Assembly: GCA_030700125.1 (NCBI GenBank)
Contig: JAUYKE010000021.1
Coordinates: 2,492 to 66,491 of the forward strand
DNA from: Candidatus Colwellbacteria bacterium
GTDB taxonomy: Bacteria; Patescibacteriota; Minisyncoccia; UBA6257; Colwellbacteraceae
Direction of reading: 5' to 3'
Length of the DNA stretch: 64,000 nucleotides
The position numbers were made by a program, and so were the translations under genes. Under the pieces are notes generated by a model. The model was not told the DNA's origin and searched no databases. It worked only from the letters and a program-made list of their open reading frames with translations. Shown piece by piece: positions 1 to 63,522 of this stretch (position 1 is the first letter of the stretch; each line of letters begins with the position of its first letter).

Positions 1-541
1 TAAAGGCAACGTTATTGATCCTTTGGGAGTAGCGGAGATTTATGGGACGGACGCCCTGCGGATGGCACTGACCGTCGGCAATATGCCCGGGAGTGATACG
101 GCTATCTCCGAAGACAAAATCCGAGGATACCGGAATTTTACGACCAAGATTTGGAATGCTTCGCGGTTTGTCATTTCAAGCTATGACAAAAAGCTGAAAG
201 TTAGACCAAGATATACAAAAGCTGATCGAGCACATTTAAAAAAGCTGCAAGAAATAAAGAAACAAGTAACAAGTGATTTGGAAAAATTTAGATTTCATCA
301 TGCCGCCGAAACTCTTTACCATTATTTCTGGCACACTTTTGCCGACAAGATTATTGAAGTAAATAAATCACGTTTGCAGGGAGACGATTTGGCGGACAGG
401 GCGGCGGCCCAAGCGGCACTTTTAGAGATTCTTGAAGAGAATCTAAAGATGCTCCATCCTTTTATGCCATATGTCACCGAAGAGATCTGGGCTAGATTGC
501 CTCATAAGCCACGGGGTATGCTCATGATTGAAAAATGGTAA
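1..541 (+). CDS. valS: valyl-tRNA synthetase, C-terminal fragment (5' end outside window)
   Basis: In-frame continuation upstream of the listed ORF (KGNVIDPLGVAEIYGTDALRMAL... class-I aaRS 'GxDALR' region plus anticodon-binding/coiled-coil tail); no upstream stop in frame to position 2. Confidence 0.7.
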   Translation, partial: KGNVIDPLGVAEIYGTDALRMALTVGNMPGSDTAISEDKIRGYRNFTTKIWNASRFVISSYDKKLKVRPRYTKADRAHLKKLQEIKKQVTSDLEKFRFHHAAETLYHYFWHTFADKIIEVNKSRLQGDDLADRAAAQAALLEILEENLKMLHPFMPYVTEEIWARLPHKPRGMLMIEKW

Positions 542-1212: not shown

Positions 1213-1251
1213 ACCCCGCACCTTTTCAAACAAAAAGGTGCGGGGTATAAT
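1213..1251. promoter_or_regulatory. 14-bp perfect inverted repeat (ACCCCGCACCTTTT-caaaca-AAAAGGTGCGGGGT) fused to a TATAAT box, immediately upstream of hsp20; terminator for prsW and/or operator/promoter of hsp20
   Basis: Seen directly; TATAAT at ~1246-1251, ATG of hsp20 at 1266. Confidence 0.5.
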
Positions 1252-2871: not shown

Positions 2872-4728
2872 TTATGCCTTAATCCCTCTTAGTTTAAAAG
2901 GCTTAATAATGGCGTAGAATTCTTCTTGTTCCAGCACCTCTTTTTCAATAAGCGCCCTAGCTATCGCTTTAAGTGCCGCCTTGTTTTTAGTGACAATTTG
3001 GACCGCTTTTCTGTAGGCATTATCAATAAAACTTCTGACTTCTCTATCAATTTCCGCCGCTACTTCCTCTGAATAATTTTTTTCGGTTGTAATCTCTCTT
3101 CCCAAGAATATCAGATCCTCGGTCTTGCCAAAAGTTAAAGGGCCCATTTTTTCACTCATGCCGTATCGGGTAACAAGCCGCCGGGCTAAAGTTGACGCTT
3201 GCTTTAGATCGTTCGAAGCGCCGGTCGTAATCTCTTTAAACATTATTTTTTCCGAAGCGTAGCCGCCGAGCATCATCGCTAAATCAGCCAAGAACTGCGA
3301 TTTGGTAACAAGCCGCCGGTCTTCCAAGGGTAAATTAATGGTATATCCTCCGGCCTGCCCGCGGGCAATGATTGAAACTTTGCTTATCGGATCGGCGTCT
3401 TTCAAGCCGGCCGCGACAAGCGCGTGGCCGGCTTCGTGGTAGGCCGTAATCTCTTTTTCTTTATCTGAGACTATGCGGCTTCGCCTCGCCGGCCCTAAAA
3501 TAACTTTTTCAATTGATTCATAAAGCTGAAGCTGGCCGACCTCGGTATGCTTTTCCTGAACAGCGAGAATCGCCGCCTCGTTAACAAGATTTGCCAGATC
3601 AGCGCCGGAAAAACCGGGAGTTCTCGCCGCCACCCTGGAGAAATCAACGTCTTTTGCCAAGGGCTTACCTTTGGCGTGAATCTTTAAAATTTCTTCCCGC
3701 TCCCTAATGTCCGGCAGATCAAGCACCACCCTTCGGTCAAACCGCCCAGGGCGCAAGAGTGCCGCGTCAAGCACGTCAGGCCGATTGGTTGCCGCGAGCA
3801 CTATCACTCTGGTGCCCTGATCGAAGCCGTCCATTTCAACCAAAATTTGGTTTAGGGTCTGCTCCCTCTCATCATGTCCACCGCCTAAGCCGGCGCCTCT
3901 TTCCCGGCCAACCGCGTCAATTTCATCGATAAAGAGGATGGAAGGAGCCGCCTTTTTAGCTGTTAAAAAGGCGTCCCGAGTCCGGCTAGCTCCAACTCCG
4001 ACAAACATCTCTACGAACTCTGATGCCGAAATGTGAAAGAATGGCACCCCGCTCTCACCCGCGACTGCCCTCGCCAACAACGTCTTTCCGGTTCCCGGCG
4101 GCCCCATCAAAAGTACGCCGCGAGGGATTTTGGCTCCCATCTCAGTGTATTTTTTCGGCTCCTTCAGAAAATCAACAATCTCTTCAAGTTCTTTTTTGGC
4201 TTCTTTTAGGCCGGCCACGTCAGCAAAAGTAGTCTTCTCTTTTTGGCCGCCGAATAGATGAACGTTCGCTCGCCCAAAAGTGAAGGCTTGGTTAACTCCG
4301 GTTTTGGCTTGCCGAATGAGAAACCAGAAGATGGCCACGATAAAAATCAGGGGCAAAAGAGCCGGAAGAATAATGCTTAGCCAAAAGCCAATCCCCGATT
4401 GTTCTTTTGATTCTATTCCCACCCCGCCCAAAGCCTCGGGCGCGACCCCGTAGTTAACAAGGGTTTGGGTCAAGCCGGCTTCAACCTCCTTTTTGGAAAC
4501 GAGCTTCTCGCCGTTTTTAAGTTCAATTTTCAAGTTGTCTCCGGCGACTATAATCTTCATCACCTCACCGGCGGTGATCTTGTGAGCCAGTTCAGTAATA
4601 TTAATCGTTGCCGGTTCGTCCCGGGTTTCGTAAATCAAAGAGGAAACAAAAGCCAGCGCAATTAGCGCGATAACCACCCGAATGATGCCCCGATAAAATA
4701 TTTTTTTGTTGGGACCCTGGTCCTTCAT
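2872..4728 (-). CDS. ftsH: ATP-dependent zinc metalloprotease FtsH
   Basis: AAA+ Walker [24 protein letters not shown] region, HEAGHALVA zinc motif; start set at internal Met (MKDQG...) to avoid overlap with next gene; upstream Arg-rich extension in the ORF track unlikely. Confidence 0.9.
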
Positions 4729-4738
4729 GGACTTAAAA

Positions 4739-5944
4739 TTATTCAACCGCCACCGGAGGCTCTCCAATTGACGTGGCCTGCCCCGGCGGCGTCTTCGAGG
4801 TAAGTTTAAGAATAATCCTTTTTTCATCGGGCTTAACGGAGTCAATCAGAAACTCGTAGGATTTGCCCGGCTCGAGATTTTTCTTTAATTCCTCCACCGA
4901 GCCAAACTCGGAGACATGAATCAGTCCCATAATATCCTGGTCAAGCTTAATAAAAGCGCCGAAAGGATTAAGTTTGTGAACGATTCCATGCACCGTCACT
5001 CCTTCCTTGAAACGTTCACTCACTTTCTCCCAGGGGTTTGGTTGGAGAGTTTTGATTGAAAGGGATACTCGGCCGTCTTTGATCTCAATAATTTTGGCTT
5101 GAACCATATCGCCGATTGCCACTACTTCCTTAGGGTGGTCAATTATATTATGGCTTAGTTCAGAGATGTGAATCAGTCCTTCGATTTCGGGATTGTCGGC
5201 AAAACGGGCAAAAGCGCCGAAATTAGCCACCCCGGAGATAATCCCCGAAACAACTTGCCCTACCGAATACTGGACTAAGAGTTCCTTCACATTCTCGGTT
5301 ACCACTTCTCTCTCGGAAACTATTAATTTATTGTTTCGCGGATTGACGTTAATGATCTTTACCGTGAGTTCGGTGCCGATGAACTGATTCAGGGTCTCTA
5401 GTATCTTCTGGCGATTGCCGTCGGCGTTTTGAGGATAATGCTCGTTGGAGAGTTGAGAGGCCGGTAAAAAGGCCTGAAGACCGGCAATGGCGGAAATCAA
5501 CCCGCCGGTATTAGCCGCCGTAATCTGAACTTTAATCGGTTCTCCCTGATCCTTTAGTTCTTTGACTTCCTGCCAAGCCTTCTGTTTGCCTGCTTCGGTC
5601 AAAGATAATTCTACAAACCCCTCGTCGTTTTCCGGGGCAAGCACCTTAGCGGTTACGACCTCGCCGATCTCAAGTTTTTTTAGAATTCCTTTGGCATTTA
5701 AAAATTCCACTCCATAGACAATACCGGTTCCGATTTTGGGAATTTCAAAATAGGCCGCCCGGCCGCCCCTCTCCATTAGGGAAACATCAACAAGATCGCC
5801 TTCCTTAAGAAGAATCATGAGCGAGGGGTTCGCTTTGAGCATTTGCAGTTCTAGATGATTACCGTTCTTTTGCATTGCTTGGAGATTATAGAGAAATGGA
5901 TTTGTGTCTGCAAGTTTCAGAAGCTTGTCGAAAGCCCCAATCAT
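4739..5944 (-). CDS. S1 RNA-binding domain protein (ribosomal protein S1-like, ~4 S1 repeats)
   Basis: Repeated S1-domain signatures (G.V.G.V..F.L......GLIH.SE). Confidence 0.75.
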   Translation of the reverse strand: MIGAFDKLLKLADTNPFLYNLQAMQKNGNHLELQMLKANPSLMILLKEGDLVDVSLMERGGRAAYFEIPKIGTGIVYGVEFLNAKGILKKLEIGEVVTAKVLAPENDEGFVELSLTEAGKQKAWQEVKELKDQGEPIKVQITAANTGGLISAIAGLQAFLPASQLSNEHYPQNADGNRQKILETLNQFIGTELTVKIINVNPRNNKLIVSEREVVTENVKELLVQYSVGQVVSGIISGVANFGAFARFADNPEIEGLIHISELSHNIIDHPKEVVAIGDMVQAKIIEIKDGRVSLSIKTLQPNPWEKVSERFKEGVTVHGIVHKLNPFGAFIKLDQDIMGLIHVSEFGSVEELKKNLEPGKSYEFLIDSVKPDEKRIILKLTSKTPPGQATSIGEPPVAVE

Positions 5945-8999: not shown

Positions 9000-10283
9000 A
9001 TGTCTTTTACTCGTCAGCAACTTATCTTCCTCGGCGTTGTCGGCGCCATTGTTTTAATATTTCTCATCATCTTTTTTGCTGGAGGCAGGAGATCATCAAC
9101 TGAGAGAGTAGAACTCACTGTTTGGGGAATAGATGACAAAGTAGCTTGGCGTGACACTATTTTTCAGTACCGAAGGCTCCACTCAAACGTCAGAATAGAA
9201 TATACCCAGATTGACCCGGAAAATTATGAGAAGGAACTTGTAAATGCCCTGGCTGCGGATCGAGGTCCGGACATTTTTATGTTTAACAGTCGCTGGCTTT
9301 ATAAGCACGGCGATAAAATTGCCGCTTTTCCCTCGGAGACGATGAGTCTTAGCGCCTTTAGTGAACTCTTCCCGAAAGTGGCGGAACAGGACTTTCTTTA
9401 TAATGGGCAAATTTATGCCCTGCCTCTTTCAGTCGATACCCTGGCTCTTGTTTACAACCGGGATATTTTTGATGGGCGAGGCGTGGCTCTATCGCCGAAG
9501 ACCTGGGAAGAATTCCAATCTCTTGTTCCCCGCTTGAGAACTATTAATAAACAAGGAAGCTTGACGCTTGCCGCTGCTTCAATCGGCGGCCCTTCAGAGA
9601 ATATACCGAATGCTGCTGATATTTTATCCCTTTTAATGTTCCAGGCAGGTGCCACTCAAACGGATGAAGAGCTTGGCACGACCAGGATTAATCCTAACAC
9701 GAAGGAGGGCGAAAACGCTCTTAGCTTTTATGCTCAATTCGCCAGTCCAACCAGTACTTACTATGCTTGGAGTAATTCTTTTGAATCCTCTACCGAATCT
9801 TTTGCCGAGGGTAAAACAGCAATGGTTTTCGTTTATGCCTACCAACTCCCCCGGATTAAGGAAAAAAATCCTTTTCTGGATTACGCTATTGCGCCAGCAC
9901 CGCAAATCAATCCCGATAACCCAATAAACATTGCCAACTATTGGGGATTGGCAGTTTCTACGAAAAGCTTAAGCCAAAACGTGGCCTGGGATTTTGTGAC
10001 GTTTGCTGCAACCGACAAGGATAATGCGGCCAATTATCTCAAGACTACCTCCCGCCCGCCGGCTTTGAGATCCCTAATCAATGATCATCTAAGTGATAAA
10101 GATCTTGGCGTTTTTGCCAGTCAGGCGTTAACCGCCAGAACTTGGTTTCAGGTTGATGATATAGCTTTTCAAAGGATTCTTAACGGGGCGATAAAAAGAG
10201 CGCTGGGAGGAGCCCCTCTCTATCAAGTTTTAAGGCAGGTCGATGCCGAAATAATCCAACTGGAAAGAGAGTTAACAAGATGA
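9000..10283 (+). CDS. extracellular solute-binding protein (ABC transporter family-1 SBP), N-terminal membrane anchor
   Basis: 427 aa; signal-anchor then typical sugar-type SBP pattern (LTVWG...DIFMFNSRWL...); no permease/ATPase adjacent. Confidence 0.7.
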   Translation: MSFTRQQLIFLGVVGAIVLIFLIIFFAGGRRSSTERVELTVWGIDDKVAWRDTIFQYRRLHSNVRIEYTQIDPENYEKELVNALAADRGPDIFMFNSRWLYKHGDKIAAFPSETMSLSAFSELFPKVAEQDFLYNGQIYALPLSVDTLALVYNRDIFDGRGVALSPKTWEEFQSLVPRLRTINKQGSLTLAAASIGGPSENIPNAADILSLLMFQAGATQTDEELGTTRINPNTKEGENALSFYAQFASPTSTYYAWSNSFESSTESFAEGKTAMVFVYAYQLPRIKEKNPFLDYAIAPAPQINPDNPINIANYWGLAVSTKSLSQNVAWDFVTFAATDKDNAANYLKTTSRPPALRSLINDHLSDKDLGVFASQALTARTWFQVDDIAFQRILNGAIKRALGGAPLYQVLRQVDAEIIQLERELTR

Positions 10284-10654
10284 CGGATTTCCTAAGCTTT
10301 ATAGGGGTAAAAATAGCGCTGGCGCAAGGGCTTGTCCCCAATTGCTCTCCGACTGAATGCGGGGAAGAGCAGCTTCTTCAATTAGGCGTAAATGTCATCA
10401 ATTTTATGATTCAGTTTCTCGCTTTCCCCCTCGTCGTTGTCTTTTTCCTTTGGGGCGGCTTTCTTCTTCTCACCTCCGGCGGTTCGCCTAACCGGGTAGA
10501 GCAGGGTAAAAAAGCGATCACTGGTGCTATTATCGGATTGGTGATTGTTCTCACTTCGGTGGTAGTGATTAACACCCTTCTTGGTACCTTTACTAGCTGC
10601 GAAGTCAAATTGAGCCAAATCGGTAAAGTTAATTGTCCAGGTATCACAGATTAG
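10280..10654 (+). CDS. small two-TM protein, T4SS-pilin-like (TrbC/VirB2-type 'pilin' fold candidate), paralog 1
   Basis: 124 aa; hydrophobic helix - WGGFLLLTSGGSPNRVEQGKKAITGAIIGLVIVL - second helix; ATGA start overlap with SBP gene. Confidence 0.5.
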   Translation: MTDFLSFIGVKIALAQGLVPNCSPTECGEEQLLQLGVNVINFMIQFLAFPLVVVFFLWGGFLLLTSGGSPNRVEQGKKAITGAIIGLVIVLTSVVVINTLLGTFTSCEVKLSQIGKVNCPGITD

Positions 10655-10701
10655 CAATTTGTTATTATGAAATTAAGCCTCCACCGCCATAAGAGATAAA
10701 A

Positions 10702-11112
10702 ATGAAACATTCTATCCAGTCACTTTTCATTATTCTCCTAGCTTTGTTCGCATTCGGATTTCTAAATCCGGCTCTTAGTCCTGCCCAGGCTCAAGTAGGC
10801 GGCGGGAATCCTAACGGATTAGTTATCGAAAATCCCCTCAACTTCGGCACCATCCCAGAGATCCTTAATGCCGTTGCGGGATTTCTCTACGTAACTGCCC
10901 TTGCCGTAGTAACCGTTATGGTTCTTTGGGGAGGTTTCCAGATTCTTACTGCCGCCGGCAGTCCGGAAAGGATTGATAAAGGCAAGAAGACGCTTTTATA
11001 TGCTGTCATCGGGACAGTAGTTATCATCATCGCTGGCGGGATGGCCGATCTTACCGCTAATATTCTCGGAGGGGGAACCCAGCCGGGTCCTCCTGCTGGC
11101 TCACTACCATAG
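10702..11112 (+). CDS. small secreted two-TM protein, T4SS-pilin-like, paralog 2
   Basis: Signal peptide (…LNPALSPAQA/QV), then LWGGFQILTAAGSPERIDKGKKTLLYAVIGTVVIII motif shared with neighbours. Confidence 0.5.
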   Translation: MKHSIQSLFIILLALFAFGFLNPALSPAQAQVGGGNPNGLVIENPLNFGTIPEILNAVAGFLYVTALAVVTVMVLWGGFQILTAAGSPERIDKGKKTLLYAVIGTVVIIIAGGMADLTANILGGGTQPGPPAGSLP

Positions 11113-11182
11113 CCGTTCGCTCTCCACAAGGACTTTATGCTATCATTAGGGAAACCCAAAAGGTCGGAAGCTAAGATCGTGT

Positions 11183-11542
11183 TTGATGAGCAAGTTCAAC
11201 TTACAGAAACTGACAACGAAAATTAACTCCGCCTACGTTGGTGCTGTCCTTGTCCAACCAGCAAGAGCACTAGGAGAACCAACAGCACCCATTAAGACTG
11301 CTCAAGGGGTTGTAGACGCAATTAACCAAGTAGCCAATTTCTTATTTGCAGTCTTCCTTGCTTTGGCCGTTATCTTCTTGATTGTAGCGGCACTTTTTTA
11401 TCTGACTGCAGCAGGCAATCAGACCCAGCTTGATAAGGCAAAGAATACTTTAATTTATTCCATCGTCGCCATTGTAATCGCCTTGATTGCGGGCGGATTA
11501 ACAGCCTTTATCGGCGATATTTTAGGAACAAGAGCCTTGTAA
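11183..11542 (+). CDS. small two-TM protein, T4SS-pilin-like, paralog 3
   Basis: LFYLTAAGNQTQLDKAKNTLIYSIVAIVIALIAGG motif shared with the two upstream genes. Confidence 0.5.
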   Translation: MMSKFNLQKLTTKINSAYVGAVLVQPARALGEPTAPIKTAQGVVDAINQVANFLFAVFLALAVIFLIVAALFYLTAAGNQTQLDKAKNTLIYSIVAIVIALIAGGLTAFIGDILGTRAL

Positions 11543-13601: not shown

Positions 13602-13631
13602 TTGTCAATGATTTAAAATTTGATGTATAAT
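13602..13631 (+). promoter_or_regulatory. sigma-70-like promoter (TTGTCA-18nt-TATAAT) driving leader + tRNA-Leu
   Basis: Consensus hexamers seen directly upstream of structured leader. Confidence 0.5.
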
Positions 13632-13653
13632 ATCGACACTGGGCAGGTGGCGA

Positions 13654-13708
13654 AATGGTATACCCCAGTAGTAGTCCGCCGGAGGCGGACACTACGGGGC
13701 AGGCGCGC
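13654..13708 (+). ncRNA. conserved structured leader element, copy A (AAUGGUAUA-CCCC(A)GUAG-UAG-hairpin-CA-CUACGGGG-CAGGCGCGC), directly 5' of tRNA-Leu
   Basis: Closing helix CCCC-A-GUAG/CUACGGGG plus inner hairpin UCCGCC-GGA-GGCGGA; two related copies elsewhere in window. Confidence 0.45.
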
Positions 13709-13712
13709 AATT

Positions 13713-13794
13713 GCCCCCGTGGCGGAACTGGTAGACGCGCATGGTTTAGGACCATGTCTCGAAAGAGGTAGGGGTTCAAATCCTCTCGGGGGCA
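13713..13794 (+). tRNA. tRNA-Leu (anticodon TAG), long variable arm, no encoded CCA
   Basis: GCCCCCG-TG-GCGGAACTGGTAGACGC-...CATGG-TTTAGGA-CCATG-variable arm-GGGGTTCAAATCCTC-TCGGGGGC-A. Confidence 0.85.
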
Positions 13795-13816
13795 CAAAAA
13801 TTTTATCAAAAAGAAA

Positions 13817-13849
13817 ACCCCACCAGTCCGGGACGGACTGGCGGGGCGC
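13817..13849 (-). terminator. hairpin (CCAGTCCG-GGA-CGGACTGG, extended) followed on the minus strand by T-runs; terminator for the metallophosphoesterase gene
   Basis: Seen directly. Confidence 0.5.
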
Positions 13850-15219
13850 TAGAAGTGACAAGAACTTTCACGGAGCTCACCCGGCCCGTCAAAGAGCATG
13901 AGGCAGGCCGAGGCGAATGTCTTTGTCTTCGCCTCGAATTCAACGAGGGCAAATCCGTAAAGCTGCTCTACCGCGTGAACGAAACCGCCGGCACCGCTCG
14001 TTCCCGGTGAGACAGAAATCACCGTACCGGATCTTTCAAAGAACTGACGGTGATCATGCCCCGAGACAAAAACGAGCGGCAACTCGATTTCCTCCGCGTA
14101 GCGTGCCGCACATTCACCGACCTCGGGATTGTGGACGAGGATAATCAGTGCATCTGTTTTCGCAAACTCCCTCTCGAGCTTGCGGCAGATTTCCGAAAAC
14201 GACATTTCTGCCAGTTTCGGATCCCGGTCGTCAATGCCTCCAAGCGGATCGCTCTCGCCGATGATTCTTATGCCGCGAATTTCGGTAAGAGCGCCGTTCT
14301 CGAGCAGGCGGATGTTGGACGCCTCCTTCACTCTCTGGATAGCCGCTTCGTCCTCGTGATTTCCGGCGACAAGGATGTAGGGTATCCCATTGTCGCTACT
14401 CCGGACGAAGAAATCGGCTTCCATTGCTGTTCCTCGATCGGTGAAGTCACCGGCATCGAGAACAGCATCTACCTTGAAGCTCTTCGCTAACTCGCGCGCC
14501 ATCGCCATCCCCAGCGGGTTATTGTGGAGGTCTGAAACGAGCAGGAACTTGACGGTTGGAGGTGTTGGCACCTCTGCCCCGGTTGTTACCTGTTCGTGGA
14601 GACGCACAAGCCCGGCGATCACTTCGTTGAAGGTAAGCTGCGCCTTATCCCAGTCTTCTTGGATTTCCGTCACTAGCCGGAAAATCCGCGGGGCATCTTG
14701 AATCGGCCCCCTATAGGACGGGTTGCGAAGCGATTGAGGGTTAAAGGTGAGGGCGGCTACAGTTCCGAGGATTGTCACAACGACAAAAGTCGAAACGATA
14801 GAGAGGGCGGCTCCGATAATCCGCCTCCGTGGCGGACCATTAATGGCGACTACTCCGAAGAGGCCGCCAAAGAGCAGAAGCCAGAGCAACTTAGCCCAGA
14901 TTAGCTTCCACGTCAGACCGCCGAAATCCTCCGGTTGGGGCAGAGTCTCGGCGCTATCTCCGACAACAAACACCGCCTCGACGTTCAAGGGGCCATAGTG
15001 GGTTCCCCAGGATAGCTCACCGAGCGGACCGAGACCGAGCTTGAGCTCGCCTCCGGGGATGGCTGGTGCCAGCCGTAATGAGAGCTTGCCCGTTTCAAGA
15101 TGAAACACCGTCGGGCTTACGAGCTCCACGCTGACGAAAACCAAAAAAGCCACCAGCACGATTCGAATGATTGCCGATTTCACATTCACCTCCTTCCTGT
15201 CAAAGGGCTTAATTACCAT
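13849..15219 (-). CDS. membrane-anchored calcineurin-like metallophosphoesterase (GC-rich island)
   Basis: N-terminal TM segments then LLVSDLHNN, GDFTDRG, VAGNHED, GHDHRQ metallophosphoesterase motifs. Confidence 0.75.
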   Translation of the reverse strand: MVIKPFDRKEVNVKSAIIRIVLVAFLVFVSVELVSPTVFHLETGKLSLRLAPAIPGGELKLGLGPLGELSWGTHYGPLNVEAVFVVGDSAETLPQPEDFGGLTWKLIWAKLLWLLLFGGLFGVVAINGPPRRRIIGAALSIVSTFVVVTILGTVAALTFNPQSLRNPSYRGPIQDAPRIFRLVTEIQEDWDKAQLTFNEVIAGLVRLHEQVTTGAEVPTPPTVKFLLVSDLHNNPLGMAMARELAKSFKVDAVLDAGDFTDRGTAMEADFFVRSSDNGIPYILVAGNHEDEAAIQRVKEASNIRLLENGALTEIRGIRIIGESDPLGGIDDRDPKLAEMSFSEICRKLEREFAKTDALIILVHNPEVGECAARYAEEIELPLVFVSGHDHRQFFERSGTVISVSPGTSGAGGFVHAVEQLYGFALVEFEAKTKTFASACLMLFDGPGELRESSCHF

Positions 15220-24169: not shown

Positions 24170-24182
24170 TACTTTTATTTAG

Positions 24183-24253
24183 TCGGGGCGCCGAGACTCG
24201 AACTCGAACTAAATCCTCCCAAAGGACTCGTGCTGCCATTACACTACGCCCCG
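24183..24253 (-). tRNA. tRNA-Pro (anticodon TGG)
   Basis: CGGGGCG-TA-GTGTAATGGCAGCAC-G-AGTCC-TTTGGGA-GGATT…TTCGAGTC…CGCCCCG-A. Confidence 0.8.
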
Positions 24254-24670
24254 ATACTTATATTTGTTTTTCAATAATTCCTCTAATCTACTGCTTAGCT
24301 TCAGGTAGGTGGCTTTATCGGAATATCTAATTTTACATGTTCCCATACTTTTCCCGACCTTATTACCTTGAGGTCTAACTATAGTTTTTGTAAATCTATT
24401 TTTTGGAATTCTAGTTACTTCTGACCAATAATTCTCTATGTATTCTTTGTCATCTCCTTCGTGAATTTGAAGTTGTAATTTTAAACGTGGCTCATCTATC
24501 CTGATATCGTTCCTTAAGAAATCTAAGAACAATTTTATTATGTCCGGATTTGTATTAGTAACGTCAACATTGCGTATCCAGGTGTTTTTCCACCGTTTAT
24601 CTTTATATGCTTTAGTCCCTTCTGTCCACCAAATTATTATACCTATAACTTCTCTCAGACTATATCCCAT
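24239..24670 (-). CDS. AT-rich hypothetical protein inserted within a tRNA operon (3' end overlaps tRNA-Pro by ~15 nt)
   Basis: 143 aa, K/N/I/Y-rich, composition distinct from the neighbourhood. Confidence 0.45.
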   Translation of the reverse strand: MGYSLREVIGIIIWWTEGTKAYKDKRWKNTWIRNVDVTNTNPDIIKLFLDFLRNDIRIDEPRLKLQLQIHEGDDKEYIENYWSEVTRIPKNRFTKTIVRPQGNKVGKSMGTCKIRYSDKATYLKLSSRLEELLKNKYKYRGVV

Positions 24671-24737: not shown

Positions 24738-24806
24738 CGCGCCTGCCCCGTAGCGAGCCATGCCGTGTGGCGAGCTTTGCTCTGCTACTGGGGTACCACC
24801 ATCACC
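24738..24806 (-). ncRNA. conserved structured element, copy C (GGUGAUGGUGGUA-CCCC(A)GUAG-CAG-hairpin-CUACGGGG-CAGGCGCG), between tRNA-Arg(TCT) and the AT-rich ORF
   Basis: Same closing helix and flanks as copy A at 13654. Confidence 0.45.
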
Positions 24807-44405: not shown

Positions 44406-44473
44406 TCCCGCACCCTTCGAGGATTTGCGCTTCGCGCATTTGGTACGGAGTACTCATCCTCGAAGGGTGCGGG
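44406..44473 (+). other. long stem-loop immediately after rny stop (19-bp stem TCCCGCACCCTTCGAGGAT…ATCCTCGAAGGGTGCGGGA, ~30-nt loop); terminator or processing/regulatory structure
   Basis: Seen directly; no clear U-tract. Confidence 0.45.
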
Positions 44474-44556
44474 ATAGCGTGTTTAAGCCATTTTTGCTAT
44501 AATGGCTTCACGAATTGGCTTAAATAAAGGTCGGATTTATTTTTCGGAATAAGCAG

Positions 44557-47144: not shown

Positions 47145-47154
47145 TTTTACACGT

Positions 47155-47205
47155 GCCCCCGAGAGGAATCGAACCTACATTATGAGCTCCGCCCCGCACC
47201 ATGCT
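47155..47205 (-). pseudogene. tRNA 3'-half-like fragment (T-arm + 3' acceptor: GTAGGTTCGATTCCTCTCGGGGGCA) without a 5' partner; last 14 nt identical to 3' end of tRNA-Leu(TAG) at 13713
   Basis: Cannot be folded into a full cloverleaf; only ~55 nt available between flanking tRNAs. Confidence 0.4.
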
Positions 47206-47210
47206 TTTTG

Positions 47211-47282
47211 TACCCCCAGCAGGAATCGAACCCGCATCACGAGCTCCGCAAGCTCGCATTCTGTCCGTTGAACTATGGGGGC
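47211..47282 (-). tRNA. tRNA-Arg (anticodon GCG)
   Basis: CGAGC-TTGCGGA-GCTCG anticodon arm; D and T arms identical to tRNA-Arg(TCT). Confidence 0.7.
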
Positions 47283-47347
47283 ATGTGCGGGATTACGGTT
47301 TTTATCTCCGACTTACGTCAGAGAAAAACCGGGAACAATCTTCGTGT

Positions 47348-47399
47348 TCTGCCTGCCCCGCACCGAACTTCGTTCTGGTGCTGGGGTCCATTAAACTAC
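47348..47399 (-). ncRNA. conserved structured element, copy B (UAAUGGA-CCCC(A)GCA-CCAG-GAAC-GAA-GUUC-GG-UGCGGGG-CAGGCAG), ~65 nt upstream of tRNA-Arg(GCG)
   Basis: Closing helix shows compensatory change (GCA/UGC instead of GUAG/CUAC) relative to copies A and C. Confidence 0.45.
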
Positions 47400-47434
47400 G
47401 AGGGCAGGACTCTCTTATTATTCACGTCTTACGA

Positions 47435-53485: not shown

Positions 53486-53629
53486 GACACGAAAACAGGG
53501 TTTTTGGGAGTGTCCCATTTTGCAACCTGAGTAGTTGCCAGGCGGTTGACTAATGGCATTAAATATGCCATTCTTTGGTGTCCTTTAATAGCGTATTCTC
53601 TCCACCGAAAGCGAAAGGAGGTGGTCGAC

Positions 53630-56017
53630 ATGATCCCAATGCTACACCAGCAGGACTGCCTGGACCGCCTCCAGGCGGTTCGTAAGCAAGGCCATGAACG
53701 TGCCCTCATCGTGGTTGCAACTGGCCTTGGTAAGACTGTCATTTCGGCTCTCGACATAAAGCAGTTTCGGAAGCTGAAGCGTGGTGGTCGAGTGCTCTAC
53801 CTCTGTCACCAGAAGGATATCCTCCGGCAGGCTCGGAGGACCTTCGAGCTCGTGCTCGGAGAGGAGGCGACCTACGGGTATTTCCACGGCATGGAAAAGC
53901 ATTTCCACGACGTGGATTGTCTCTTTGCCTCGTTCCAAAGCATGCGCGAGTGGCGTGAGGCTTTCCTTCCGGATGAGTTCGACTACATCGTGATTGATGA
54001 GAGTCATCATGGTCCGGCGCCGACTTACCGCCCCACGATCGAGTACTTTGAACCCAAGTTCTTGCTTGGAATCACCGCTACTCCGGATCGGACCGATCTC
54101 CAGGATATTCGGGAGATCTACGGACGGGAGGTCTACTCGCTTCCCATCGAGGAGGCTCTAGCCAAGGGGCTTCTCACAAGGGTGGACTATCGACTCATCA
54201 CAGATGAACTCGTCGATCTCAAGGTACTCGAGACGCCAGTTGGTAAGCTCAGCATAACCGAGCTCAACAAGAGGCTCTTCGTACCGAAGCGAGACGAGGA
54301 AATCGCACAGATCATCCAGAAGCGCATCAAGAAGATCAAGGACCCTCGGGTTATGATTTTCTGTCCTTCAGTGGACTACTGTATTCGACTCTCGGCGCTC
54401 TTGCCAGAAGCGATACCCATCCATTACCGGCTTTCCGGGAAAGACCAGGAAATTCGGCTTGAGTTATTCCGGCAGGGCCGGGTCAGGTCAGTCCTCACGG
54501 TCGATAAGTTCAACGAAGGGATTGATATCCCAGAAGCGAACGTAATTGTCTTCCTCCGCTCGACTGCTTCTCGGATGCTCTTCTTCCAGCAGCTTGGGAG
54601 GGGACTCCGGAAAGTTGAGGGGAAGAAGAAGGTTCTCGTGCTCGACTTCGTGGGTAACTGCGAGCGGCTCGAGCTGGTCCACTATCTGTGGTCTGAGGTG
54701 ATGACGTATCACTCTCATAAGATCTCGGGTAATGGACCGGCTCCAATCGAGATTGATGTCGGAAGCCTCAAATTCTCCGAGGTGACCAAGAACGTTCTGG
54801 ACGTCATCATGGCGGTTCGGGGCGGTTACACTAAGGAGATTTTGATCAAGCAGCTCAGGCAACTTGCCGAGCGGATCGGACGAATCCCTAGAAGAGTCGA
54901 CGTAGACAAGGCATCTCATGAAGGTCGATGCGCACACAGCGTGACTTTCACAAGGGTCTTTGGATCATTCCCTAAAGCTCTGCTGGCAGCGGGGTTTGAG
55001 CCGAACTATATTCGCTCTCTCCTCCCAAGTAAAGAGGAAATGATTCGTCTCCTCCGGGAACTCGGAGATAAACTGAAAAGAGTTCCCAGTCGGGAAGACA
55101 TTCGGCAGGCAAACAAGGAAGGGTTCTGCCCAAGCTGCTGGTACTACGAGCAACAGTTTGGATCACTTCCAGAAGCTCTCACACGTGCCGGCTTTAATCC
55201 TCGGAGATCAATCCGGCACACTCCGGAAGAGCTCATCGAAAGGCTCCAGTGGCTCACCAGAGAGCTAGGTCATCAGCCTTCGCATAGAGAGTTAAGGAAA
55301 GTAAGTAAGGAGATCAATGGTTTCCCGACCATTCTTCCTTTCCTGCGTGCTTTTGGCAATCTTGATGAGGCATTCGAAGCAGCAGGCCTCAGTAGAAGGC
55401 GAGGTATCGAGAAATATAAATCCTCGTACACGGAAGATGAGATTGTCTCTTACCTTCAGAGTCTTGCCAAGCAACTTGGTAAGACACCTAGCGCAGCTGA
55501 CGTAGGCCAAGCAAGTGCCGGCGGCAAGGGGCCAGGATCCTCCGCTATCGCCCGACGCTTTGGCAGTTTCAATGCAGCGCTTGAAGCAGCTGGATTACTA
55601 CCATTAAAGAGAAACTACACCGACGAAGAGCTTATTGATCTGCTCCGGCAGTGTGCTGAGGAGATCGGTAAAGTTCCCGGAAAGCAAGACCTCCTACACC
55701 ACGGCTGGCCAAGCCCTAACACATACCGACAACACTTCGGCTCGTATGCCATCGCGCTTGAGAGAGCTGGGCTTACGCCGACTGCTCGAAGCATCGCAAG
55801 AAGCATCTATAGCTTCGAGGATATAGTCAGGGCTGTCCGAAAGGTAGCGGAAAACCTAGGCCGAGTTCCTACTCTAGGTGAGTACGAATCACTCCGTGCC
55901 GTTGGCGAACCTACTCGCTACACGATTAGTAGGCGACTAGGCGATTGGAAGTCTGTACTAAAAGCCGCTGATCTTACAGGGGAAAACGAATCCCTGAACA
56001 CCCGGTTGGAGGGATAA
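53630..56017 (+). CDS. SF2 (ResIII/DEAH-like) helicase fused to six C-terminal homing-endonuclease-associated (HEAR-type) repeats; GC-rich
   Basis: Walker A ATGLGKT, Walker B DESHH, motif III GITATP, helicase-C motifs; C-terminal six ~50-aa repeats ending …FGS(F/W/L)xxALExAGL; AAGGAGG SD before ATG at 53630. Confidence 0.8.
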   Translation: MIPMLHQQDCLDRLQAVRKQGHERALIVVATGLGKTVISALDIKQFRKLKRGGRVLYLCHQKDILRQARRTFELVLGEEATYGYFHGMEKHFHDVDCLFASFQSMREWREAFLPDEFDYIVIDESHHGPAPTYRPTIEYFEPKFLLGITATPDRTDLQDIREIYGREVYSLPIEEALAKGLLTRVDYRLITDELVDLKVLETPVGKLSITELNKRLFVPKRDEEIAQIIQKRIKKIKDPRVMIFCPSVDYCIRLSALLPEAIPIHYRLSGKDQEIRLELFRQGRVRSVLTVDKFNEGIDIPEANVIVFLRSTASRMLFFQQLGRGLRKVEGKKKVLVLDFVGNCERLELVHYLWSEVMTYHSHKISGNGPAPIEIDVGSLKFSEVTKNVLDVIMAVRGGYTKEILIKQLRQLAERIGRIPRRVDVDKASHEGRCAHSVTFTRVFGSFPKALLAAGFEPNYIRSLLPSKEEMIRLLRELGDKLKRVPSREDIRQANKEGFCPSCWYYEQQFGSLPEALTRAGFNPRRSIRHTPEELIERLQWLTRELGHQPSHRELRKVSKEINGFPTILPFLRAFGNLDEAFEAAGLSRRRGIEKYKSSYTEDEIVSYLQSLAKQLGKTPSAADVGQASAGGKGPGSSAIARRFGSFNAALEAAGLLPLKRNYTDEELIDLLRQCAEEIGKVPGKQDLLHHGWPSPNTYRQHFGSYAIALERAGLTPTARSIARSIYSFEDIVRAVRKVAENLGRVPTLGEYESLRAVGEPTRYTISRRLGDWKSVLKAADLTGENESLNTRLEG

Positions 56018-62698: not shown

Positions 62699-62870
62699 AC
62701 TAAAAACCCGATCGTCGCATAGATACTAGCTTTTTGGAAATCTTGTGAAACATTGACGAACCTTGTGAAACATCGTGAAAATTGCAAAACCCGATCGTGG
62801 CTTAAATACTAGAGATTTGACAATGTATTCTAAAAAGGGTGTTTTGTGAAACAATGCTTGACTGTTAAAC
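62699..62870. repeat. repeat-dense region: two copies of AAAACCCGATCGTnGCnTAnATACTAG (first within a 12-bp-stem hairpin) interleaved with at least three CTTGTGAAACA iterons plus degenerate TTAAACAATG copies
   Basis: Seen directly; a fourth CTTGTGAAACA copy in inverted orientation lies at ~63341-63351 on the other side of the LAGLIDADG-like ORF. Confidence 0.6.
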
Positions 62871-63329
62871 AATGAATTTTTTAAACAATCCGCCTCGGCA
62901 GAGCTCCTTCCTAAAATAGCCAGATTTGTGGAGACGGTAGAGAAGTTTATAGCTTTCGGGCACAAACGGATCAGTCTCTATCCTTTCTAGCCACTCACTA
63001 AATTGCTCTGCTCTGGCACCTATCAACCTGTCGTAAAATAAAGGGATAATTATATTTTTTAGTGATCCGAGCTCCCTAATTATTAAAATTGCGACCGGCC
63101 TTCTCTTTGCTTTATCTTTTCCGGGGTAGTGATAAATATAGATTTTATTTTTTAACTTGAGCTTATTTCTAATTGCCTTGAGTAGCTCTTCATCTTCGGC
63201 CGGCATTCTTAGCTGAAATGATGGAATTCTTCTTGGTTTCAAACTGCCAAGGTTACTGGAGGTTGTAAAAGTAAATGTCCCTGTGCCCTGGACTAGCCCC
63301 CGGATGTAGTCATAGCTGATGTTTGTCAT
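62865..63329 (-). CDS. LAGLIDADG-family homing-endonuclease-like protein (single-motif type; motif reads IRGLVQGTG, second acidic residue not conserved)
   Basis: 154 aa AT-rich; N-terminal LAGLIDADG-like helix followed by pattern consistent with the I-CreI-like fold. Confidence 0.5.
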   Translation of the reverse strand: MTNISYDYIRGLVQGTGTFTFTTSSNLGSLKPRRIPSFQLRMPAEDEELLKAIRNKLKLKNKIYIYHYPGKDKAKRRPVAILIIRELGSLKNIIIPLFYDRLIGARAEQFSEWLERIETDPFVPESYKLLYRLHKSGYFRKELCRGGLFKKFIV

Positions 63330-63492: not shown

Positions 63493-63522
63493 GCTGCGGG
63501 GCGCTCAAGGGCGCCCCGCAGC
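63493..63522 (-). terminator. GC hairpin (CTGCGGGGCGC-tcaag-GCGCCCCGCAG) downstream of minus-strand GC-rich ORF
   Basis: Seen directly. Confidence 0.5.

Follow-up and report, generated by a model that had tools for sequence, protein, structure and literature searches.

The DNA analysed here, called the window below, is a stretch of 64,000 nucleotides (nt) from a Candidatus Colwellbacteria bacterium (assembly GCA_030700125.1, contig JAUYKE010000021.1, positions 2,492 to 66,491 of the forward strand). It has a G+C content of about 48% and contains 15 tRNA genes as well as the housekeeping genes for PNPase, TyrRS, GyrA, RecA, FtsK, NusA, IF-2 and RNase Y. Our subject is a small hairpin that occurs in the window at three sites, referred to as A, B and C. 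A first-pass annotation of the sequence had described these sites as copies of one structured RNA motif that always lies beside tRNA genes. The three sites are real, and the hairpins fall inside the intervals that had been marked (Table 1). The descriptions of B and C, however, had been exchanged: the copy at 24738-24806 is the one with GUAGC/GCUAC, between tRNA-Arg(TCT) and an open reading frame (ORF) preceding tRNA-Pro, and the copy at 47348-47399 is the one with GCACC/GGUGC, 69 nt upstream of tRNA-Arg(GCG). All three share the core CCCC-A-GYASY-A-(variable stem-loop)-RSURC-GGGG followed by an unpaired CAGG, which we refer to as the foot, the tip (the variable stem-loop) and the tail. The 5′ strand of the foot carries two bulged A's, 5 bp apart, where a single one had been claimed. 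This composite pattern was observed three times in the window against a mean of 0.0 in 300 first-order Markov (Markov-1) simulations, and a covariance model matches exactly A, B and C, with E-values of about 1e-11 to 1e-13 that are to be read knowing that two of the three belonged to its training set.

Further copies were collected by two scans. One genome from each of 185,579 species was scanned with a strict pattern in which the 5-bp helix of the foot was unconstrained. This returned 27 loci, which is near the number expected by chance; seven of them contain the full hairpin. Five of these seven are metagenome-assembled genomes (MAGs) labelled Patescibacteria group, Saccharibacteria (two), Andersenbacteria and Berkelbacteria, and the remaining two are short contigs binned as Gammaproteobacteria. 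A metagenome scan yielded about 24 true hairpin copies among 38 loci. Outside the window the hairpin occurs in about 30 Patescibacteria loci; labels such as L051 or L052 denote loci from related genomes and metagenome contigs. The core of the hairpin is near-identical in the MAGs labelled Saccharibacteria, Berkelbacteria, Andersenbacteria and Patescibacteria group and here in Colwellbacteria, and the family is patchy in several Patescibacteria lineages, with one to many copies per genome. A viral origin was rejected on finding one canonical copy among the 120 viral-contig matches listed. Two features of the collection bear on what follows. The pattern fixed CCCC/GGGG and copies with a pairing helix were kept, so that the covariation of the helix is real but not blindly sampled, and the scans demanded ATGG within 6 nt upstream of the hairpin, which enriches for flanks resembling a tRNA D-loop.

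Among 25 distinct copies, standard pairs occupy 99.4% of the cells and both sides change in seven of the 13 pairs. This level of covariation was reached by none of 500 shuffles and the signal was lost once the partners were slid against each other; RNAalifold independently predicts the same structure. The 5-bp helix occurs as GUAGY/RCUAC, GCACC/GGUGC and, rarely, GUACC/GGUAC, and three of its five pairs covary in about 25 homologues. The compensatory change first noticed as a GUAG/GCA swap is therefore borne out and is wider than that swap, and the further covarying homologues proposed as a check were found, in about 30 other Patescibacteria loci. Conservation sits in the paired bases and the loops are variable; the tip can have any sequence provided it pairs. 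Even between copy A and its close orthologue L051, whose distal stem is GUCUGCC/GGCAGAC, a C-G pair has been replaced by U-A.

The suggestion that the hairpin belongs to no known RNA family held. Rfam 15, run over the whole window at the gathering threshold, returned only the 15 tRNAs, and in E-value mode up to 10 over each copy it gave nothing beyond noise on the hairpin, as it did for 20 related loci. We found no description of the element in the literature, the nearest report being one of group I introns in Patescibacteria tRNA genes. Several other identities were considered and set aside. The core features of hepatitis delta virus (HDV)-like, hammerhead, twister and pistol ribozymes, group II domain V, signal recognition particle (SRP) RNA, Y RNA, box C/D RNA, attC and dif do not fit, and none gives an Rfam match. 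A small leader peptide starting at the ATG of AUGG was rejected because its frame relative to the hairpin differs among copies. GGGCAGG as a general box, such as an FtsK-orienting polar sequence (KOPS), an uptake sequence or a binding site, was rejected with 11 occurrences found in the window and 7.5 expected. The 8-mers most over-represented in the window include the arm words GGTGCGGG and CTACGGGG, at about 7-fold; an uptake sequence was nevertheless rejected for them, since there are just 6-9 copies in 64 kb and nearly all are within hairpins. An alternative in which the 3′ arm pairs with the acceptor strand of the tRNA or with a segment downstream showed no consistency across loci.

The flanks of A and C show where the hairpin has landed. 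At A, the sigma-70 promoter that had been noted ahead of the element is present, and it is followed by the 5′ part of a dead tRNA-Leu gene. With the hairpin taken out, GTGGCGAAATGGTATA joined to CGCGCA is identical at 20 of 22 positions to positions 7-29 of tRNA-Leu(UAG), the alignment running across the junction (z = 8.0 against shuffles). This dead copy consists of its 5′ part only, without any 3′ part. At C, the joined flanks GCCCTCGTAGTTTAATGGA and CAGAACACGA match positions 1-29 of tRNA-Arg(GCG) at 23 of 29 positions and tRNA-Arg(UCU) at 24 of 27. The element has exact boundaries and at A and C it interrupts the D-loop of truncated tRNA-Leu and tRNA-Arg genes. The upstream AUGG..A flank of the hairpin is the tRNA D-loop. 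The shared flanks AUGG..UA, previously taken as part of the motif, are at A and C the D-loop remnants of the truncated tRNA genes. At both loci an intact tRNA of the same kind follows closely on the truncated one, and the single predicted promoter stands ahead of the truncated copy; 5′ tRNA fragments upstream of tRNA genes occur in the window solely at hairpin-bearing sites. The flanks of copy B are not tRNA-like.

The same arrangement recurs elsewhere: in 11 of 29 copies the flanks are tRNA-like across the junction (z = 4.6-19), and beside each of these 11 stands an intact copy of the matching tRNA (several cases of Leu, with Glu, Thr, Pro, Arg and, in antisense, Lys). Removal of the hairpin alone restores a whole tRNA at none of 28 loci, and the outer genes are therefore truncated copies. 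The insertion points fall in the D-arm after position 16/17, 20/21, 21/22 or 24/25 and, in L030, in the T-arm at 53/54, always with exact boundaries. For 11 junctions an uninterrupted tRNA is available for comparison, and none of them shows a target-site duplication; the insertion comes after an A and is clean in other respects. In L030 (2036-2175) the interrupted gene is a nearly full-length tRNA-Lys pseudogene beside an intact tRNA-Lys, with the hairpin antisense at the T-loop; two more small hairpins stand at the anticodon-loop position of this pseudogene. A different hairpin occupies the D-arm of a second truncated tRNA-Leu copy (positions 1-38) in L019 (about 170-275, minus strand). It reads GCCUGCC-GGU-AGGCAGGC, also ends in GGCAGG, and is followed by an AT-rich spacer and then by an intact tRNA-Leu(CAA).

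Some features of the surroundings of A may be recorded here. The tRNA-Leu(UAG), tRNA-Arg(UCU) and tRNA-Arg(GCG) genes of the window do not encode the 3′ CCA. A bidirectional terminator-like hairpin (13817-13847) lies between tRNA-Leu(UAG) and a convergent metallophosphoesterase gene (13849-15219, minus strand), which falls in the 12-14 kb region, where G+C is about 55%. If one relative at 82% is left aside, the closest named homologues of this gene (38-47% identity) are from Actinomycetota and not from the candidate phyla radiation (CPR, the Patescibacteria), so it was probably acquired horizontally. An attempt to find orthologues of locus A through it was given up, as it led to no orthologous loci and the other relatives are Actinomycetota.

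Locus C is more complex, since the hairpin foot also brackets the intact tRNA-Arg(GCG) downstream, as CCCGCAC/GUGCGGGG. The flanks of this tRNA, ..UCCCGCACAU and AUGGUGCGGGGC.., are the foot of copy C without the tip, and in the window the 10-mer GGTGCGGGGC has exact matches only at the right arm and in copy C. Beyond the right arm lies the 3′ half of a second, dead tRNA-Arg(GCG), whose acceptor strand pairs at seven of seven positions with GCCCUCG (47399-47405), the start of the 5′ fragment that bears copy C. When the hairpin and the whole block of arm, inner tRNA and arm are removed, ARAGORN calls a tRNA, with positions 31-33 missing and a mismatch in the T-stem. The minimum free energy (MFE) fold of 47412-47150 (263 nt) shows the nested layout, with z = -3.7. 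Judged by these alignments and pairings, at locus C an insertion with a complete tRNA-Arg in it has divided an old tRNA-Arg gene near the anticodon loop, and the D-loop of that old gene holds a second hairpin, which has no cargo. The acceptor stems of the inner and outer genes differ by a compensated change, A7-U66 versus G7-C66, and therefore both were once working tRNAs, of different descent.

Features of the window that belong to the hairpin family or to its landing sites are collected in Table 1.

Table 1. Hairpin copies, related hairpins, and the tRNA genes and tRNA remnants around them (positions in the window)
Feature	Position	Strand	Remarks
Bulge-less hairpin, same foot, CCCC-GCACC ... 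GGUGC-GGGG	1214..1245		8 nt past the stop codon of a PrsW-like gene
Sigma-70-like promoter TTGTCA-18-TATAAT, ahead of leader and tRNA-Leu	13602..13631	+	11/12 consensus match; predicted start about 3-5 nt before the tRNA-like fragment
Dead tRNA-Leu, 5′ part (about positions 1-21: acceptor position, D-stem 5′ strand, D-loop)	13641..13662	+	
Hairpin copy A	13663..13703	+	CCCC-A-GUAGU-A-GUCCGCC GGA GGCGGAC-ACUAC-GGGG-CAGG; z = -3.8; covariance model 54 bits
Dead tRNA-Leu, continuation CGCGCA (D-stem 3′ strand, about positions 26-28)	13704..13709	+	alignment runs through the junction
Intact tRNA-Leu(UAG)	13713..13795	+	begins 9 nt past the element
Hairpin copy B, GUAGC/GCUAC type, enlarged distal part	24742..24793	-	between tRNA-Arg(UCU) and the ORF preceding tRNA-Pro; 56 bits
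Bulge-less hairpin, same foot, UCCC-GCACC-CUUCGAGGAU ... AUCCUCGAAG-GGUGC-GGGA	44406..44474		begins at the base after the RNase Y stop codon
Dead tRNA-Arg, 5′ part GCCCUCGUAGUUUAAUGGA (acceptor 5′ strand, D-stem, D-loop)	47387..47405	-	promoter-like site just upstream
Hairpin copy C	47352..47386	-	CCCC-A-GCACC-A-GAAC GAA GUUC-GGUGC-GGGG-CAGG; z = -2.8; 59.8 bits
Dead tRNA-Arg, continuation CAGAACACGA (about positions 21-30)	47342..47351	-	
Long A+U-rich hairpin CGGUUUUUCUCUGAC GUAA GUCGGAGAUAAAAACCG	47296..47331	-	between dead tRNA-Arg 5′ part and inner tRNA; outside the hairpin family
Left arm of hairpin foot, CCCGCAC	47285..47291	-	pairs with 47192-47200, 9 bp, one bulge
Intact inner tRNA-Arg(GCG)	47210..47282	-	
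Right arm GGUGCGGGG	47192..47200	-	identical to the 3′ arm of copy C
Dead tRNA-Arg(GCG), 3′ half, anticodon loop to acceptor 3′ strand CGGGGGC-A	47154..47191	-	follows the right arm directly; identical to the inner tRNA at 32/40 positions

Nesting of this kind is not confined to the window. In L052, removal of the hairpin (at 24/25) and of a 140-nt insertion (at 33/34) leaves a flawless 70-nt tRNA-Pro(UGG), with acceptor 7/7, anticodon stem 5/5 and T stem 5/5. The reverse complement of the hairpin's ends, tail included, forms the two ends of that insertion (CUUGUCCCGUAC...GUACUGGGG). In L060, an outer tRNA-Leu holds a hairpin at 16/17 and a tRNA-Leu-bearing insertion at about 21/22, with arms CCCCGCAUAGCUGG/CCACUUGUGCGGGG. 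The outer tRNA can be called by ARAGORN after such a double removal at three loci (window C, L052 and L060), one of which looks functional; the program is lenient toward the anticodon arm. In L205 one tRNA-Ile lies within another; the arms, of 14 bp, end ...GGGAGGG-CAAG. The anticodon stems of the outer tRNAs of L060 and L205 are degenerate. Inverted repeats of 9-14 bp flank the inner tRNAs of L032, L199, L205, L001 and L052; in the group L032, L039, L001 and L199, where the repeats measure 9-13 bp, several begin CCCG or CCCC. The outer copies range from perfect (L052) through badly decayed (window C, L060, L205) to half-deleted (window A), and in the window and elsewhere an intact cognate tRNA always accompanies the outer copy. 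Larger relatives of the hairpin appear to carry a working tRNA inside a dead cognate gene, an arrangement of which we found no description in the literature.

The positions and orientations of the copies also bear on how the element should be understood. There are 5-6 copies in the 64-kb window. About 10 of 36 copies are antisense to the downstream gene by a rough gene call, and antisense copies (L024 twice, L118, L035, L061, L044-, L030) keep both the foot and the CAGG tail; both copies of L024 follow the stop codons of genes on the opposite strand and retain the tail. A copy lies within a copy in L046 and L038. L061 has nine or more copies within 12 kb, among them arrays in which a 34-nt unit is repeated head to tail; these tandem repeats were compared with TIGR arrays, an identity that was rejected as the variable part is self-complementary, unlike a guide. 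One copy at L061 overlaps a gene end and is followed by a U-rich run on the strand of the gene, in L056 the hairpin is followed by UUUUUUU, and in L011 it stands 11 nt ahead of a trpS-like start codon. In relatives (L193-L198; ORF product 86% identical) the spacer corresponding to that of copy B is shorter by about 100 nt and contains no hairpin. No copies were present in 161 kb from nine other Parcubacteria genomes, where these tRNA genes are abundant, against five foot hairpins in the 64-kb window.

A few neighbouring observations concern the same loci. The L061 genome is unusually repeat-rich for a CPR bacterium: a duplication of about 3.3 kb that includes a 382-aa ORF is accompanied by long repeated AT-rich intergenic blocks (1179-2327 and 4469-5617; 6230 and 10305). 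The hairpin-bearing metagenome contig L033 has a strong match to LOOT RNA (RF03000, 95 bits) at 4724-4844 on the plus strand. Beside copy B lies a 143-aa ORF (24239-24670, minus strand) that overlaps tRNA-Pro(UGG) (24182-24253). It is 56-86% identical among the 120 Patescibacteria homologues listed, has no Pfam or PDB match, and at every locus examined its end overlaps the first few nt of tRNA-Pro(UGG), whether a hairpin is there or not. It was considered as cargo of the element or as a homing endonuclease and rejected on these grounds, being a conserved gene that abuts tRNA-Pro(UGG) in either case.

Our results suggest that the three sites are copies of a discrete hairpin insertion element, comparable to repetitive extragenic palindromic (REP) sequences or miniature inverted-repeat transposable elements (MITEs), which consists of a conserved foot, a CAGG tail and a variable paired tip and is mobile now or was formerly. 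We give this reading a probability of about 0.5. Of the options offered by the first-pass annotation, a small mobile element that targets tRNA loci is the one that fits best, in view of the precise insertion into truncated tRNA genes. The element would move, or would have moved, at the DNA level, and its landing sites in the mapped cases would be the DNA coding for the D, anticodon and T loops of tRNAs, with the larger members of the family carrying a whole tRNA gene. An insertion that kills a single-copy tRNA gene could survive only when the element brings a working copy, and the cargo-less copies would persist only in tRNA copies that were already dead (A, C) or in spacers (B and the two hairpins after stop codons). 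The association with tRNA genes would then be a matter of survivorship, because an insertion is tolerated only where a working copy of that tRNA is present. The hairpins may be transcribed in the leader of the pre-tRNA, because the promoters at A and C appear to be those of the dead copies, and standard processing by RNase P would discard them when the tRNA matures. By analogy with REP sequences, protein recognition is the likeliest reason for the conservation of the foot. Some protein could bind the foot in its folded form, bulged A's included, and move the element, process its RNA, or both, and the candidate target would be a folded DNA strand in the case of mobilisation or RNA in the case of processing or 3′-end protection.

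A bolder proposal, which we put forward tentatively, is that the foot is the mark of a class of tiny CPR mobile elements that invade tRNA loops, disrupt the gene and rescue the host with the replacement tRNA carried by their larger members. The host could then not lose them and tRNA genes would be swapped between lineages; the 35-nt hairpins of the window would be cargo-less members and the foot a recognition site for a recombinase or nuclease. About eight loci support this proposal of disruption and rescue.

Several observations weigh against mobility. No transposase, integrase, reverse transcriptase or HUH enzyme was found by Pfam among the roughly 65 ORFs of the window or seen beside copies elsewhere, and the compared junctions lack target-site duplications. 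The copy number is low and copies within one genome differ from each other, so there has been no recent burst. The orthologous leaders of window A, L051, L044 and L017 keep the D-arm-like flanks and the foot, with a tip that is wholly changed, and this looks like purifying selection on an RNA or DNA structure rather than junk. About 70% of copies are in sense and near predicted promoters. None of the six copies collected without the ATGG requirement has tRNA-like flanks, and tRNA fragments occur without a hairpin in other genomes. The proposal of disruption and rescue, in addition, depends on few loci and on ARAGORN calls with their leniency toward the anticodon arm.

A role at the RNA level is the main rival. 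The hairpin could be a cis-acting structured RNA of pre-tRNA leaders, and of some mRNA leaders, in which a hairpin closed like a D-stem is bound by a protein or RNase that controls processing, stability or transcription of the tRNA downstream; we regard this as doubtful. It is kept alive by the D-arm-like closing helix in the tRNA-Leu leaders and by the predominance of sense copies: the orthologous tRNA-Leu leaders preserve that helix and the foot with compensated changes, the closing helix of L028 is GUG/CAC where its tRNA has GCG/CGC, that of C is GUUU/GAAC where the tRNA has GUUC/GAAU, and all 13 tRNA-linked copies that lie upstream of a tRNA are in sense. The structure predicted by RNAalifold and the covariation, the occurrence of a few G-U pairs on the sense strand, the position of A and C a few nt from predicted transcription starts and the placement of L011 ahead of a trpS-like start codon would also be expected of such an RNA. 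Against it, antisense copies keep the same foot and tail, there are copies nested in each other or in tandem, relatives lack B in the orthologous spacer, the nine related genomes with the same tRNA genes have no copies in 161 kb, and two related hairpins follow the stop codons of protein genes. For this reason a tRNA-leader processing or regulatory RNA, which the first-pass annotation had entertained, does not stand as the main reading; its observation that A, B and C adjoin tRNA genes is correct for the window, but the hairpin is not a tRNA-specific leader motif. There is no visible expression platform and it is the paired bases that are conserved rather than loops or junctions. A T-box or other leader riboswitch in particular finds no conserved unpaired pocket and no alternative terminator/anti-terminator here, and at A the tRNA starts 9 nt after the hairpin. 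Alternatively, the hairpin may serve the host in a generic way, like the working face of REP sequences, as a 3′ end, terminator, or stabiliser or processing stem whose foot is read by a lineage-specific factor, with no mobility involved. The two foot hairpins placed directly after the PrsW-like and RNase Y stop codons would agree with this, as would the gene-end copy of L061 with its U-rich run, the U tract of L056 and the way the foot brackets tRNA-Arg(GCG) like a processing stem. However, a U tract is lacking in most copies; a scan for intrinsic terminators calls none of A, B and C, and the U run is present only in L056 and on the reverse strand of the L061 copy. The generic explanation, which we consider rather unlikely, also leaves unaccounted for the exact insertions at D- and T-loop positions of dead tRNAs, the nested copies, and the patchy spread of a near-identical core across distant lineages.

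The tRNA halves around the insertions invite two further explanations. In one, the hairpin is a folded recombination site comparable to attC or CTX that belongs to small integrative elements with tRNA genes as their targets, and the tRNA halves are att remnants. The architecture is attC-like (conserved foot, extrahelical bases on one strand, variable tip), tRNA halves do flank the inserted segment, and exact 3′ tRNA repeats of 19-20 nt exist near integrase genes in the CPR loci L201 and L203. In these loci (at about 8811 and 8461, respectively) a perfect copy of the tRNA-Gly 3′ end follows the gene at a distance of about 118 nt, and tyrosine-recombinase genes are located a few kb off; the copies look like classical att-site remnants. 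The hairpin, by contrast, lacks the attC R/L boxes (GTTRRRY), no integrase was found near any copy examined, the remnants are upstream 5′ parts and not the usual downstream 3′ parts, and the insertions are tiny (35-190 nt), which makes a relic of site-specific recombination very unlikely. In the other, the hairpin and the tRNA-bearing insertion are introns, removed from the RNA by cleavage at the foot, or by RNase P and RNase Z acting on the inner tRNA, and subsequent ligation, so that the outer tRNAs are functional. The ends of the element pair together and would bring the exon ends close, the mapped insertions sit in loops or at stem-loop junctions, and the outer tRNA-Pro(UGG) of L052 is flawless after both removals. 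A true intron is nonetheless hardly credible, because most outer genes are visibly decayed (window C, L060 and L205, and A without a 3′ part) and an intact cognate tRNA, needless if splicing worked, is always present. An unusual tRNA or a tRNA intron consisting of the hairpin alone was rejected outright on the 28 loci at which its deletion never restores a tRNA, and the motif is neither a bulge-helix-bulge nor a group I intron.

Some other observations in the window touch none of these subjects. A 154-aa ORF at 62865-63329 (minus strand) matches the homing-endonuclease family LAGLIDADG_1 (E = 2.7e-5); no intron or rRNA was recognised in its surroundings, and a perfect 10-bp palindrome, GCTGCGGGGC...GCCCCGCAGC (63493-63522), lies about 160 nt from it. 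An 823-aa helicase (ResIII/Helicase_C) at 53546-56017 (plus strand) is fused to six 'homing endonuclease associated' HNH_repeat units, and three successive small genes with T4SS_pilin/TrbC matches occupy 10280-11542 (plus strand).

The insertion element described here is a conserved structured element of a large, poorly understood bacterial radiation that we found neither in Rfam nor in the literature. Several odd leaders ahead of tRNA genes are explained as dead tRNA copies, and standard tRNA finders report tRNA genes nested in older copies of themselves as a single normal gene. If disruption and rescue takes place, it would be a new way for a selfish element to become indispensable where tRNA genes are single-copy, as well as a route for horizontal tRNA replacement, and the foot would be a handle for finding the enzyme that recognises it. 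Should the function prove to lie in the RNA, the hairpin would be a new protein-binding hairpin of CPR transcripts.

Among known systems, the REP sequences of enterobacteria and pseudomonads, with their doublets (REPINs) and REP-associated tyrosine transposases (RAYTs), are alike in being imperfect extragenic palindromes of about 35 nt whose bulges give them an orientation, and which occur after stop codons, in operon spacers and in tandem or inverted pairs with compensated changes. The minimal element found here, 35 nt in intergenic positions, lies within the 20-40 nt of a REP palindrome. REP palindromes have an unpaired GTAG or CGTC tetranucleotide at one end (PMC3733652). The hairpin has no such unpaired tag; its GUAG pairs with CUAC in subtype 1, and subtype 2 has GCAC. 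REP sequences number tens to hundreds per genome; the counts for the hairpin are 5-6 in the 64-kb window and at least nine in 12 kb of L061. The core of the hairpin is common to class-level lineages and not species-specific. It inserts precisely in tRNA-derived sequence, some members enclose a whole tRNA gene, and no Y1_Tnp match, as expected of a RAYT, was found among the roughly 65 ORFs of the window. With MITEs the hairpin shares ends that are inverted repeats but not, at the 11 comparable junctions, a target-site duplication.

Folded or interrupting elements of other kinds offer partial parallels. Integron attC sites likewise fold into hairpins in which the base is conserved, one strand bears extrahelical bases and the central part varies in length and sequence; the hairpin, however, has none of their R''/L''/L'/R' boxes (RYYYAAC/GTTRRRY) and is accompanied by neither an integron integrase nor a cassette array. 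The disrupted tRNA genes of archaea (bulge-helix-bulge introns, split and permuted genes) also have insertions in the D, anticodon and T loops with ends that pair, but the bulges of the hairpin, of 1 nt and 4 nt, are on the 'wrong' sides for a bulge-helix-bulge, the host is a bacterium, the outer genes are mostly decayed and an intact copy is present. The group I introns reported from Patescibacteria tRNA genes are self-splicing ribozymes of 200-400 nt in the anticodon loop (PMC13011429). They belong to the same phylum and, as here, the interrupted tRNA genes are missed by annotation tools; the hairpin differs from them in having no ribozyme core and no Rfam intron match.

The Rickettsia palindromic elements, the GC clusters of yeast mitochondria and the double-hairpin elements of Allomyces are small palindromic insertions in compact genomes. 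They land in genes for structured RNAs or proteins, are patchy in occurrence, are tolerated when harmless and encode no transposase. Their habits resemble those of the hairpin, with different sequences, and we know of none that carries a tRNA gene or sits in a cognate one. Integrative elements that target tRNA genes, too, supply sequence that keeps the tRNA functional. Those elements, however, are kilobases long, encode an integrase and replace only the 3′ part of the gene, leaving a 3′ repeat at the far end, whereas the insert described here, of 35-190 nt, brings a complete tRNA and has the two halves of the old gene on either side.

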